The notes: generated by a model from the letters alone, not told the origin. A DNA stretch of 64,000 nt from Escherichia coli (GCF_024298765.1 NZ_CP101210.1), one strand, 5' to 3'. Positions 48,581 through 64,000 are shown, counted from the first letter of the stretch. Program-made: numbers and translations.

Positions 48581-49957
48581 TTACTGACTTTGTTCCACCT
48601 TCGTATCCAGTAAAATGACATAGCGATTCAACAACTGATTTAACCGGGTATCAATTTGCGTCAACAGCGTTGGCGAAACCTCTCCGGTCTGTTTTTGCTC
48701 TTCCAGTTGCCGAAGCAGTTCTTCCAGCGGCGGCTCCTTTAACGACTGCCGGATGCCGTACACCGCCGTTTTCAGTTCCGAACCGGTCAGATATCTCCCC
48801 TTACGTTCATCCAGTGCATCCAGCTGCGCCGACAGGCGCTGTAGCTGACTCTGCGCCTGAGCATAGCCATTCAGTGCCTCAGCAGACAGGGCGCTCAGCT
48901 CCCGCTGTTTGCGCCACTGCGCGTTCAGCGCCCTGACCTGAGGATTATCCGGCCACAGGGCATCAAGCTGGCGTAGCTGGCGATATCCCTGCTCCAGTGG
49001 CCAGCGGGCAGGCAATTTGTTTAACTGCTCCAGTTGCATCTGACTTGCCGCAATTGTTCTGTCCTGAGCCAGCAGCGCCTTATCCTTTACATCCAGCTTT
49101 GCCAGTTCGCCGCTCTCCAGCGACTGCGGCAACGGCATGACAGACAGTTGTATTCGCTGGATTAGCGCGTCCGGCTGATTAAGCTGCGACCAGCCCCATA
49201 ATCCTGTTCCGCCGAGACCGGCCATCACAACCATTCCGGCCATAAATATCGGCCATGTCCACTGCCGGGAGATTTCAGGGGATGGCACGGGTGGACTGGC
49301 ATCCTTATCGTTTTGCTGAACGGATCTGGTTGCAAAAACCGGCTGTGGACTTTCCTCTGACTTTTTCGGTTGATTCATTTCCCGGCGGGGTAATTCAGGG
49401 GGAGTGATAATGGTTTCCGCTCCCTGAGGCGCCAGCCGTTCCAGACGCAGAGCCGCATTGCGAAACTGCCCGGACAATACGTCCAGCTTCGTCATATGCC
49501 ACAGTTCACACTGTTGCAGCGTGGTTTCGATGGCGGAAAGATGCTGTACACAACGGTAGATCTGCGGCAGATCCTGATACTGAATATCCAGCGTTCTCAG
49601 TGCCTGCTGCATTTTTTCTGTGACCCAGTTGAGCAGTGATATTCTGGAATGTACCTGTACCGGCCAGAAGTCAGCCCAGCGCTGGAGCAGTATATCCAGT
49701 GAACCGAGTCCGTCTGCCATCCCTGCCAGCCCCTGCCGTCTGGTTATCGCCAGTACGTAACAGACCAGCGTCTGTAGTTCCACGCCATTTTGCCGGAACA
49801 GCGCGAGGCTGAGTTTTTCCACCTGACGCCAGTCCACATCCGGTCGGGCCGGGTGAGTCAGTTTACTCATTTCAGCCTGCAGTTCACCGGATTCCTTATA
49901 AGTACAAGGATCGCCGCCCATGACGAACTGGCTGATAAAATTCGCGTTACTTGCCAT
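48581..49957 (-). CDS. T6SS-associated ImpA_N-domain protein with central transmembrane segment (VasL/TagA-like)
   Basis: 458-aa ORF; N-terminal region similar in pattern to the ImpA_N domain of the tssA product; hydrophobic segment (WPIFMAGMVVMAGLGGTGLWGW); last gene of the T6SS block. Confidence 0.55.
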   Translation of the reverse strand: MASNANFISQFVMGGDPCTYKESGELQAEMSKLTHPARPDVDWRQVEKLSLALFRQNGVELQTLVCYVLAITRRQGLAGMADGLGSLDILLQRWADFWPVQVHSRISLLNWVTEKMQQALRTLDIQYQDLPQIYRCVQHLSAIETTLQQCELWHMTKLDVLSGQFRNAALRLERLAPQGAETIITPPELPRREMNQPKKSEESPQPVFATRSVQQNDKDASPPVPSPEISRQWTWPIFMAGMVVMAGLGGTGLWGWSQLNQPDALIQRIQLSVMPLPQSLESGELAKLDVKDKALLAQDRTIAASQMQLEQLNKLPARWPLEQGYRQLRQLDALWPDNPQVRALNAQWRKQRELSALSAEALNGYAQAQSQLQRLSAQLDALDERKGRYLTGSELKTAVYGIRQSLKEPPLEELLRQLEEQKQTGEVSPTLLTQIDTRLNQLLNRYVILLDTKVEQSQ

Positions 49958-50385
49958 CAGTACGCCCGCTCCTGCTGTTTGAGATGACGCAGAACAATTC
50001 GTCCTTCCGGAGAAAATACGCCATCAAAGCGTATCCAGCCGGTATCGGGAAGCTGCGCGTGGATCAGGTAATTAAGATGCCCCGGACGGGGCTGGGGGAG
50101 TAATTCCACCTGTATCTGACTCAGGCGTGGTTCATAACGCAGCAGTGTTTCTTCAATCTGACGCATCAGGCCATGAATACCCGCAGCCATCCCCTGATGG
50201 ATCAGACTGAGATCCGGCAGACCGTAATCCGGCAAATGCGCCAGCGTGCCTGCCCGGCAGTTGATAATGCGTTGCATATTGTCCATCACGGAAAGGATAA
50301 GCTGATCCCGCTCGCTGACCTGTTCCAGCGGTAACTCGCCGCTGAAACTGAACGTCAGCATTTCATATAAGGAAGGTGTCGACAT
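49957..50385 (-). CDS. tssE: T6SS baseplate subunit TssE (gp25-like)
   Basis: 142-aa ORF, size and sequence pattern of gp25/TssE; sits between the tssJ and VasL-like genes. Confidence 0.7.
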   Translation of the reverse strand: MSTPSLYEMLTFSFSGELPLEQVSERDQLILSVMDNMQRIINCRAGTLAHLPDYGLPDLSLIHQGMAAGIHGLMRQIEETLLRYEPRLSQIQVELLPQPRPGHLNYLIHAQLPDTGWIRFDGVFSPEGRIVLRHLKQQERAY

Positions 50386-50388
50386 CGG

Positions 50389-50925
50389 TTATTTATCCTT
50401 GAGAGGCAGCAGTCGCAGGTCGCTTCTCATCAGTTCAATCGAGCGCGGCTTGTCGGCCTCCAGTTCGTCCCTTTTGATCACCAGACGCCAGCTGTCGCTT
50501 TTTTCATCAGGGTGATAAAACTGCCCAATAATGGCGACAAACTGCGTCTCTTTATCCAGCGGCACATTCAGGGATGCCGTGCCTTCCGGTTTTACCCAGA
50601 CGGTGTGTTTTGCCAGTACGTCCTTCTCCAGCGTCTTCTCTTCCTGCATAAACAGGGTGTCGTAATCCGCCTTGTCAAAATCTTCGCGGGTTTTCAGTTG
50701 CCAGACATGCACCATCGTGGAAAGCGGCGTATCTTCCGCATCCGTATTCAGGGCGCTGCGGGAGAAGAAATCGAGATGCAGTATTTTGATTTGTTTGTAG
50801 AAAACGGCTGAGGCCACGCTTTTCGATTCATCCACCACTTTCTGAATCAGCCCGCAGCCACTCAGAACAACCGTCAGCATCGCCATACAGAGCAACGCCG
50901 GACGTTTAAAACGAATAGGAAACAT
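50389..50925 (-). CDS. tssJ: T6SS outer-membrane lipoprotein TssJ
   Basis: 178-aa ORF with signal peptide and lipobox (VVLSGCG); position after tssG. Confidence 0.7.
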   Translation of the reverse strand: MFPIRFKRPALLCMAMLTVVLSGCGLIQKVVDESKSVASAVFYKQIKILHLDFFSRSALNTDAEDTPLSTMVHVWQLKTREDFDKADYDTLFMQEEKTLEKDVLAKHTVWVKPEGTASLNVPLDKETQFVAIIGQFYHPDEKSDSWRLVIKRDELEADKPRSIELMRSDLRLLPLKDK

Positions 50926-62339: not shown

Positions 62340-62514
62340 CTTATCTGATTGATTGGTACCTATATATATTGGTTTATTAATGTTTATTATCTCTATTTTT
62401 TCTTCGGAGTAACTATTTGAACAAAAAAAAGAAATTAATTAACACTATAGAGATCAGCGCCTTCACCTTCTGTTTTATAACTAATTTTATCATGTTCATA
62501 AACATCCCTATCTT

Positions 62515-63168
62515 CTAACTCATAAATATTTTTATTATATCTACAAGTTTCTCAATTGATTTTTTTTGAGAGTCTGTAGCAGACTCCCATTTTTTATTTT
62601 TTTTATCATATAATGCAATAACCTCAATGCCAACACTGTCCATATTATATGGATATCTATAAGGATATTGTTTAATTTTTTCATGATCATGTATCTTCTT
62701 AGCATTCCATCCGAATGCCTCTATTTTCTTTTTTTCTTCAGACGACCATGTTTTTTCCTCCTTACATCGAGACTTTATCTTCCCCACATGGCTGGTATAT
62801 ACAAATAGGCTTGCAGCCTGGTATATATTACCATCTTTTTCAACAATAAAATGAGCTCCAATGCCTTTAGAAAAACTAGCAAGTGTACCATTTATTGTTG
62901 AAGAATCTGTTCTATGCAATATTATTGCATTAATTTTAGGCATGCGACCTTCTTCAAGTTCAGGGACTGTGTGTTTTATAATTCCAGCATTTCTTATATA
63001 CCCCTCATGATCAATAAATACAACTGATACAGTACATTTTTCGTCTTCTTTTTTCTCTTCACTAAGTAATGTCTTTGTACGAAAAATACAGTGCTTTTTA
63101 TGCTTGTCATAGATCAGCGGAGAAGGATTTTCTCTTTCCCCATTACTTAATATTACATTTTTGCTCAT
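62515..63168 (-). CDS. VgrG-proximal cargo protein, candidate T6SS effector with zinc-amidase-like motifs
   Basis: 217-aa ORF 33 bp downstream of the vgrG stop; motifs ILHRTDSS, AHFIVEKDGNIYQ, SHVGKIKSRC (H-x7-C), SVGIEV resemble Amidase_2/PGRP-type elements but in atypical order; very AT-rich. Confidence 0.45.
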   Translation of the reverse strand: MSKNVILSNGERENPSPLIYDKHKKHCIFRTKTLLSEEKKEDEKCTVSVVFIDHEGYIRNAGIIKHTVPELEEGRMPKINAIILHRTDSSTINGTLASFSKGIGAHFIVEKDGNIYQAASLFVYTSHVGKIKSRCKEEKTWSSEEKKKIEAFGWNAKKIHDHEKIKQYPYRYPYNMDSVGIEVIALYDKKNKKWESATDSQKKSIEKLVDIIKIFMS

Positions 63169-63200
63169 TTTTTTCTCTTTAATAATTAAGGGTGGTATTT

Positions 63201-64000
63201 TTAAACACCAAGTAAAATCTCAATTTCAATTTCTTCTTCTTTATCACTAAAAAATGTTTCGGTGCATCCCTCATCATCAGTGACACCTTCCTTTTTTGTT
63301 CCATCAATAAAATTGGCTATATACTTAACATTACGATATGGGATATTTTCGTCATCAAAAAATTTAAAACAGCGAGAATAGTCTCCACCCTCAATCACCG
63401 GAAACGCCATCAGCTCCGGCGTCAGCTTCGCCTTCGGCTTACGCCCATAATATCCCGCCTTAACGTTATATTCTCCCGGCGTTCCCGCTTCTATCCCACA
63501 GGCATCCAGCCGGATGTAGCTGCCACCGCCGTTAAGGGTGATCTTTTTCTTCGCCGTGATTTTAATTTCATCTTCGGTACTGGTAATGATGATTTCCTTC
63601 TTCGCCAACAGTTCCATCAAGTCGTTCTGCGCCTGCACCGAGATTGCGCCCTTATTGGCAAACAGCTTGATGCCCGCTTTACGCACAAACACGCTCAGCG
63701 CCTGTCCCACGCCGATAAACATATTTTTCACCACGCCGACATCGGCGTTGTTGCCTGCGTTGGCTATCACATTCTTTGCCGCCGCCAGTTGCAGGTGCTC
63801 GCCGCTGGCGATCGCCACGCCCTTGGGTGCGCTTAGCAGGATCGCAGCCTGGTTCAGATCTTTTACGCTCTGTTGCAACAACGCAATCTGCGATGACAGA
63901 TCTGCCGGATCGGCATTCGCCGTCTGCGCATCAGTGGACAGAGACTTCATCTGTGACTGTGCGCCATTCAGTATCGCCATTGCAGGAGCCATTTCGCGCA
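63201..64000 (-). CDS. vgrG: VgrG spike protein, C-terminal part (gene continues beyond the window end)
   Basis: Frame open to the window edge; C-terminal region rich in Gly/Ala/Asn repeats typical of the VgrG beta-helix/DUF2345 region. Confidence 0.7.
   Translation of the reverse strand, partial: REMAPAMAILNGAQSQMKSLSTDAQTANADPADLSSQIALLQQSVKDLNQAAILLSAPKGVAIASGEHLQLAAAKNVIANAGNNADVGVVKNMFIGVGQALSVFVRKAGIKLFANKGAISVQAQNDLMELLAKKEIIITSTEDEIKITAKKKITLNGGGSYIRLDACGIEAGTPGEYNVKAGYYGRKPKAKLTPELMAFPVIEGGDYSRCFKFFDDENIPYRNVKYIANFIDGTKKEGVTDDEGCTETFFSDKEEEIEIEILLGV

Follow-up and report, generated by a model that had tools for sequence, protein, structure and literature searches.

What kind of secretion machinery lies in the neighbourhood of amiC in this Escherichia coli chromosome, where does it begin, and would it still work? 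The 64,000-nucleotide stretch analyzed here (GCF_024298765.1 NZ_CP101210.1), which we call the window, carries on its minus strand, from position 48581 to its last base, a series of genes that the original prediction, made from the sequence alone, had read as part of a type VI secretion system (T6SS) cluster. We conclude with considerable confidence that these 15.4 kb are the promoter-distal part of a T6SS island of about 27 kb, of the type known as Sci-1 in enteroaggregative E. coli (EAEC) and inserted at metV, within the 3′ end of this initiator tRNA gene, and that this copy is probably decaying. The metV T6SS island is already known and annotated in public genomes and, except for frame-breaking mutations, the present copy is ordinary.

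Identity and Gene Content of the Cluster

By combining a listing of open reading frames (ORFs) with comparisons to NCBIfam, Pfam and the Protein Data Bank (PDB), all the genes named in the original prediction were recovered, in the announced order and on the minus strand, between 48581 and 64000. Two features had been overlooked, namely a small frameshifted ORF (62055–62499) in the interval between the VgrG-linked cargo gene and the gene of a 404-aa membrane protein, and the truncated state of the cargo itself. The claim that the ORFs belong to T6SS families is well supported, as five core proteins exceed the curated NCBIfam cut-offs and resemble their EAEC counterparts. These are the baseplate subunits TssE (gp25-like; 49957–50385, on the minus strand as all genes of the cluster; TIGR03357, 87.2 bits for a cut-off of 53.2; 56% identity to TssE of EAEC 042), TssG (50906–51985; TIGR03347, 260 bits for 143; 54%) and TssF (51949–53709; TIGR03359, 578 bits for 260; 67%), the outer-membrane lipoprotein of the membrane complex, TssJ (50389–50925; TIGR03352, 79.7 bits for 31.6; 44%), and TssA, the cap protein coordinating tube and sheath assembly (55749–57359; TIGR03362, 472 bits for 230; 55%), with the Pfam domains ImpA_N and T6SS_VasJ found on an identical product. 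Regarding TssM, the inner-membrane subunit of the membrane complex (57352–60678), it remains below the NCBIfam cut-off (259 bits for 388, over residues 410–1151 only) but matches the solved EAEC TssM (PDB 6hs7/6ixh) with 945 bits across residues 7–1096. The Walker A motif ([AG]xxxxGK[ST]) is absent from both proteins, which accounts for the cautious label "ImcF-related family protein" that the Prokaryotic Genome Annotation Pipeline (PGAP) gives to this Sci-1-type TssM.

The last gene of the cluster (48581–49957) encodes a TagA-like accessory protein of 458 aa, in which Pfam detects ImpA_N (residues 24–112, 3e-10) and VasL (residues 306–448, 5e-39), matching the architecture of TagA, a protein described as a sheath stopper or clamp (PMC6730261). 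It shares 47% and 38% identity with the two tagA remnants of EAEC 042. In the RefSeq sequence of that strain (L002, 39864–45438; L numbers designate compared loci), tagA is present as ImpA_N and VasL fragments only, genes for a GIY-YIG nuclease and a 3′-5′ exonuclease lie between tssE and these remnants, and the reference Sci-1 tagA thus seems disrupted. At the other end of the cluster, the window holds the 3′ part of vgrG (63201–64000; 826 aa in identical genomes), recognized by its DUF2345 β-helix (Pfam, 1e-48). The operonic packing noticed in the original prediction is real, with overlaps at five of the 12 gene junctions (1, 20, 37, 8 and 8 nt) and gaps of at most 5 nt at two more. A scan for promoters and terminators did not clearly exceed shuffled expectation (18 found for 14.2, and 24 for 16.2), and a terminator-like site at 48557–48539, after tagA, is a weak hint only.

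Of 5426 complete E. coli genomes, 1475 gave a megablast match to the 15.7-kb region, at 90–100% identity; coverage reaches at least 80% in 898 of the 1475, and identity is ~100% in dozens. As anticipated, the genes missing from the window continue beyond 64000 in the four ~100% identical genomes inspected, in the order vgrG, tssH, hcp, a gene for an OmpA-family (TagL-like) protein, tssL, tssK and tssC. In 13P477T, D10 and E5, tssC is followed by tssB, three tRNA-Met genes (metV-metW-metZ) and mltA; the fourth genome, L020, stops within tssC. L020 (GCA_037165025.1) equals window positions 52600–64000 at 100% identity, with zero mismatches or gaps over 11,401 nt, and is, judged by sequence, the best proxy for what follows position 64000. 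Position 54125, in the gene of a lipoprotein discussed below, shows a single-nucleotide difference between the window and 13P477T, and the window's exact 141-aa variant of this lipoprotein was found on 21 contigs only.

The location at metV, which the original prediction had given, agrees with the three tRNA-Met genes that end the cluster in these near-identical genomes and with two published islands, PAI-CFT073-metV (PMC2660368) and the T6SS of E. coli W, which sits downstream of metV (PMC3032704). PAI-CFT073-metV and the "ETSS2" of E. coli W share the insertion site of the present island and belong to the same island family. The accompanying label of extraintestinal pathogenic E. coli is loose, the closest genomes being poultry, pig, dog and human isolates.

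Boundaries of the Island

While the original prediction placed the start of the region at 48581, where the last gene has its stop codon, the island boundary proper lies at 48374/48375. Indeed, positions 48360–48374 hold a 15-nt copy of the tRNA-fMet 3′ end (TTGGTTGCGGGGGCC), with a single match in the window for 0.01 expected by chance, which forms the att-like boundary on the amiC side. This repeat aligns collinearly with the metV junction of L001 and is immediately preceded, at 48310–48359, by a hairpin that is a diverged copy of the metZWV terminator.

The T6SS island proper measures ~27.1 kb and its first base is 48375. It shows the hallmarks of a tRNA-integrated island, i.e., insertion in a tRNA 3′ end, a direct repeat, and an empty site in K-12 and MS1718. 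In K-12, 70 bp separate the amiC stop codon from metV, and the window lineage has 32.7 kb in their place, from window position 42798. In MS1718, a strain without T6SS, the sequence is homologous to the window up to 48374, a point that falls within an intact metV. Because K-12 provides an empty site and some T6SS-less strains have a phosphotransferase system (PTS) operon joined to metV, the compared sequences indicate that the locus has three states: amiC-metV, amiC-PTS operon-metV, and amiC-PTS operon-tRNA remnant-T6SS-metV. The PTS operon is a separate, older insertion module since, at least for its distal end, it is found in genomes with the T6SS and in genomes lacking it; its phosphoglycerate-dehydrogenase-like gene and downstream spacer, used as query, are present in 1942 of the 5426 genomes. 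No integrase or transposase annotation was found between the repeat and metV in L001, L004 and L005, where T6SS genes alone are present, barring secondary insertion sequences (IS) in some strains.

A Complete but Probably Inactivated Gene Set

The original prediction had considered that a remnant cluster, deprived of core genes, would speak against it. The core genes are all present in near-identical genomes, yet several are broken, and the sequences point to a gene set that is complete but probably inactivated by mutational erosion. The first lesion affects the VgrG-linked cargo (62435–63168, with an ORF end at 62515), a predicted Amidase_2 (PGRP-like) N-acetylmuramoyl-L-alanine amidase present as a truncated allele. 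Its A run at 62529–62533 counts five bases instead of six, leading to 217 aa instead of 244 aa. On 823 E. coli contigs, the repaired 244-aa protein is found letter for letter; it aligns over its full length with homologues of 242–244 aa from Intestinirhabdus, Budvicia and Salmonella, including the conserved "YEHDKISYKT.GEGA" C-terminus. At least 1000 contigs carry the 217-aa form. The Pfam Amidase_2 domain covers residues 78–229 of the repaired protein (model positions 4–122 of 131) and crosses the frameshift, and the window's allele, which stops at residue 217, lacks a complete domain, the conserved YEHDKISYK segment being encoded in the +1 frame only. In amidases of the T7-lysozyme/PGRP type, the C-terminal segment carries the second zinc-binding His and the catalytic Lys. 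Since by analogy these residues are expected in the segment lost here, the 217-aa form is probably inactive.

The second lesion lies in the small ORF that follows (62055–62499), a candidate immunity gene for the amidase. When intact, as in 13P477T, it encodes a 147-aa protein with a signal peptide, and this intact protein is found on at least 1000 contigs. By comparison with L001, the window has T8 (62423–62430) for T7, which splits the gene into ORFs of 30 aa and 94 aa. Beyond the window, L020 carries an 11-nt deletion in tssH (GAGCAGGACAG), which leaves ORFs of 484 aa and 408 aa, and a 1-nt deletion in tssK at the CTGTTCTGG site; tssH is likewise "frameshifted" in 13P477T, D10 and E5. The 11-nt deletion was found in seven of the ten distinct contexts with the 217-aa amidase allele and in none of the eight with the 244-aa allele, all of which encode the 878-aa product (the locus end cuts two of them).

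Could the cluster nevertheless be fully functional, the frameshifts being homopolymer assembly errors or being bypassed, for example by transcriptional slippage on T8, and the PAAR toxin described below sufficing alone for antibacterial activity? Several observations weigh in this direction and against decay. Both frameshifts of the window lie in homopolymers (A5 and T8), where sequencing error or transcriptional slippage is possible, while all seven core and accessory genes within the window are intact and full length, as are the PAAR toxin and its lipoprotein partner. Moreover, tssH and tssK lie outside the window, and their state is read from a genome identical to it over 11.4 kb only; the tssK deletion is unique to the L020 assembly and is possibly an assembly error; and tssH is intact, with 878 aa, in three of the ten contexts that carry the 217-aa amidase allele. 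However, the 217-aa form, with its at least 1000 contigs, must be a real allele, and the recurrence of both amidase alleles on hundreds of contigs counts against sequencing error. Likewise, a loss of 11 nt in tssH is no homopolymer event, and seven independent contexts have it, among them the genome that matches the window exactly. We therefore regard full function as unlikely and retain a cluster that is probably eroding.

In different strains, ISKpn26 and ISEc12, the latter of the IS21 family, independently disrupt the PAAR toxin gene, tssM or nearby sequence (L005, 19373–20353; L010, 18143–20445; L019, 19755–20654; L006, 1–1215). These insertions are consistent with repeated inactivation of the island. 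The decay of the present copy, as well as the effector and immunity roles proposed below, activity and secretion included, is what we infer from sequence.

Effector Cassettes

None of the remaining products (lipoprotein, PAAR toxin, 404-aa protein, amidase, small ORF and vgrG fragment) is matched by NCBIfam, so that they had to be examined with Pfam, structure prediction and searches for homologues. Base composition delineates these cassettes. The core genes have a G+C content of 0.55–0.61, a value that falls to 0.31 over the vgrG tail, the cargo and the small ORF (vgrG upstream of the cassette being at 0.55) and to 0.37 across the lipoprotein gene and the C-terminal part of the toxin gene. 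The island thus contains two low-G+C effector cassettes inserted at fixed slots.

In the VgrG slot, the effector cassettes of the PAI-CFT073-metV family vary by strain: the amidase cassette is rare (79 of 5426 genomes) and an SLT transglycosylase fills the slot in most other island-bearing genomes. When proteins are compared, identity between the window's VgrG and the VgrG of strains with the SLT cargo collapses after "LMAFPVI", ~60 residues before the C-terminus, near 63390. The last ~60 aa (about 63201–63390) form a cargo-specific C-terminal domain, which is part of the low-G+C cassette. The cargo-binding VgrG tail thus travels with its cargo. In some strains with the same island (L009, L011 and L014, about 1100–7430, and L006, 8122–9329), an extra module composed of vgrG, a DUF4123 adaptor, a Tle1-like phospholipase and a small ORF sits between tssH and the amidase-linked vgrG, which provides two spike-and-cargo sets per cluster.

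The second slot, between tssA and tssF, is occupied by a predicted specialized PAAR effector of 468 aa (54337–55743; 470 aa in the ORF listing) and by a low-G+C gene for a 141-aa lipoprotein (53919–54344; lipobox LSGC), a candidate immunity protein. From its N-terminus, the effector is composed of a PAAR domain (Pfam PAAR_motif), a linker, two β-sandwich domains and a C-terminal HExxH metzincin-like domain. In this last domain, H394, E395, G397, H398 and H411 do not vary among 43 homologues, which provides the HExxH motif and third ligand of a zinc metallopeptidase; Y438 is invariant as well, and the best matches of the predicted fold are adamalysin-type metzincins. The C-terminal domain has no Pfam or NCBIfam match and no PDB match by single sequence or by profile. 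Its family comprises 365 representatives at 50% identity, with variable N-termini (PAAR, DUF4280, eCIS_core or none), and the conserved PAAR head by itself recurs in E. coli in fusions with other toxins, e.g., of the colicin E3/pyocin S6 type.

As for the partner, the lipoprotein and toxin genes have 8 nt in common. In a differently organized T6SS cluster, a toxin with 48% identity is encoded, again just before tssF, and is followed by two small lipoproteins, both sharing the N-terminal CTSQ...(F/I)EN.C motif of the window's lipoprotein. The invariant HExxH, the lipobox, the gene overlap and these lipoprotein partners in an unrelated cluster support the view that the PAAR toxin and the lipoprotein would be a periplasm-acting effector-immunity pair. 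A 367-aa homologue without PAAR, P0113 (L027/L028, 5001–6104), keeps the β-sandwich and the HExxH motif with 43% identity; it stands outside any T6SS context, beside LysE and polysaccharide-deacetylase genes and with no adjoining small lipoprotein gene, and may be a non-T6SS form of the enzyme.

The predicted toxin recalls VgrG2b of Pseudomonas aeruginosa (PMC6899460), which is likewise a spike-borne HExxH zinc-peptidase-like toxin, with predicted action in the prey periplasm and an exported immunity protein. However, the metallopeptidase of VgrG2b is the C-terminal part of a VgrG, whereas the window's domain is fused to PAAR, after two β-sandwich domains, has adamalysin-type metzincins as its best fold matches, and matches no PDB entry by sequence or profile. 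Our literature search found no report of this PAAR-metallopeptidase, although it may still be described; other metallopeptidase effectors were retrieved, namely Rhs-MPTase4, Rhs-M91, VgrG2b and Enterobacter VgrG2.

These cassettes also bear on whether the system would be directed at bacteria at all. By analogy with mutants of avian pathogenic E. coli (APEC) and neonatal meningitis E. coli, its main targets might be host cells, which would make it a virulence factor rather than an antibacterial weapon. In APEC SEPT362, hcp, clpV and icmF mutants have adherence, invasion and biofilm phenotypes (reviewed in PMC6730261), and the genome of this strain encodes a PAAR toxin identical to that of the window. 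Yet each cassette combines a toxin and a partner that is exported, a signal-peptide protein in one case and a lipoprotein in the other, and a peptidoglycan amidase with an SLT transglycosylase as common alternative is the hallmark of antibacterial effector-immunity pairs aimed at the periplasm. As the virulence phenotypes are moreover possibly indirect (PMC6730261), we consider a mainly host-directed role improbable.

A Conserved Membrane Protein Next to TssM

Between the amidase cassette and tssM, the cluster encodes a conserved accessory membrane protein of 404 aa (60735–61949), which newer PGAP annotation names "KPHS_23130 family T6SS system protein". Two N-terminal transmembrane helices are predicted, followed by a domain modelled as non-catalytic, ketosynthase-like and similar to Tla3/DUF2875. 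No Pfam domain was detected, and DUF2875 is not among the Pfam matches with E values up to 10, but a profile of the family retrieves from the PDB a sole significant match, 8yz3_A (E = 4e-4), and the modelled fold and this remote homology agree. The family alignment contains no invariant Cys, which makes ketosynthase chemistry unlikely. Homologues were found in Salmonella and Pseudomonas, and the gene is conserved beside tssM whichever cargo is present. In EAEC 042, the syntenic position is occupied by a 382-aa membrane protein with weak collinear similarity; as this BLASTP similarity is weak, we claim no orthology.

Tla3 (PA0259) is a cytoplasmic, cargo-specific DUF2875 adaptor for Tle3 in the H2-T6SS of P. 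aeruginosa (PMC6560169; PDB 8yz3). With its membrane anchor, the 404-aa protein is distantly related to this adaptor. It differs from Tla3 by its two-helix membrane anchor, by the lack of a Pfam DUF2875 match and by its conservation near tssM regardless of cargo. Since it is membrane-anchored and cargo-independent, its role may differ from that of Tla3, and it could be an unrecognized accessory component of the membrane complex or an effector-loading factor. No literature on this Tla3-like membrane protein was found, although it may still be described. A broader proposal can be made tentatively: the PAAR toxin and its lipoprotein may represent a new, so far uncharacterized class of periplasm-acting, PAAR-borne protease effectors, built on a widespread polymorphic-toxin domain and with a lipoprotein immunity family, accompanied by an accessory or loading factor related to Tla3, an interpretation that we find plausible but somewhat short of probable.

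Relationship to Sci-1 and Proposed Working of an Intact System

The window's cluster is collinear with EAEC Sci-1 (E. coli 042/17-2), with 44–67% protein identity over the core genes. The common order is tssB-C-K-L-tagL-hcp-clpV-vgrG-cargo-membrane protein of about 400 aa-tssM-tssA-insert-tssF-G-J-E-tagA, and the two clusters also share a TssM without Walker A and the same type of TagA (ImpA_N and VasL). They differ in location, Sci-1 being at pheU and the window-type island at metV, in cargo, Tle1/Tli1 in Sci-1 and an Amidase_2 enzyme with an exported partner here, and in their PAAR proteins: that of the window is toxin-fused and encoded between tssA and tssF, whereas that of 042 is a short gene before the membrane-protein gene. 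Sci-1 has been placed among "T6SS1-like" operons (PMC6730261); as the T6SS1 and T6SS2 names are used inconsistently across papers, we assign neither label. The likeness of VgrG, PAAR and TssE to phage-baseplate proteins and the eCIS_core domain of one distant toxin homologue could evoke another contractile or phage-derived element, such as a prophage tail or an extracellular contractile injection system, but the presence of the T6SS-specific TssJ, TssM, TssA and TagA, the T6SS profile matches, the match to EAEC TssM and the genes for TssB/C, Hcp, ClpV, TssK and TssL that follow in identical genomes, with no phage genes, rule it out for all practical purposes.

On the Sci-1 paradigm, an intact system of this family would build an envelope channel from TssJLM and TagL, on which a baseplate made of TssEFGK and VgrG would dock. 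TssA would prime the polymerization of the Hcp tube and the TssBC sheath, the distal end of which would be held by TagA, and contraction would fire the VgrG-PAAR spike into a neighbouring cell. Two periplasm-acting toxins would be carried by this spike, the Amidase_2 peptidoglycan amidase on the cargo-specific C-terminal domain of VgrG and the HExxH metallopeptidase fused to PAAR, and sister cells would be protected by the exported partners, i.e., the signal-peptide protein against the amidase and the lipoprotein against the PAAR toxin. In the present copy, this scheme would be compromised by an amidase devoid of the YEHDKISYK segment, a frameshifted partner and, as read in the identical genome, frame-disrupted tssH (ClpV) and tssK.

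Neighbouring Features

The PTS operon between amiC and the T6SS island (43054–48282, plus strand) contains five genes with a G+C content of 0.40 and is absent from K-12. It encodes a PRD-domain regulator, a maltose/glucose-type PTS EIIBC, a MalY/PatB C-S lyase, a KpsF/GutQ-family isomerase and a phosphoglycerate-dehydrogenase-like enzyme. The KpsF/GutQ-family ORF (46668–47264) has 198 aa and matches positions 36–201 of the 328-position KdsD model, which suggests that it is shortened compared to full-length KdsD, the part absent being presumably the C-terminal CBS pair; it could be a truncated or a specialized isomerase. A tRNA-Gly (CCC) gene at 2909–2982 is the sole tRNA gene in the window, and an Rfam scan of 42000–64000 found no RNA family.

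Conclusion

The original prediction recognized a known T6SS island from raw sequence alone and was right about its contents past the edge of the window. The amiC-side boundary can now be placed to the base, a 15-nt remnant of a tRNA 3′ end dividing the older PTS-operon module from the T6SS module. Among the products of the island, the PAAR-metallopeptidase/lipoprotein pair and the Tla3-like membrane protein are modest leads, which offer cheap targets for functional studies. Finally, what appears here to be an eroding weapon, with lesions in an effector, an immunity gene, ClpV and TssK, matters when strains are scored as "T6SS-positive" in virulence surveys.

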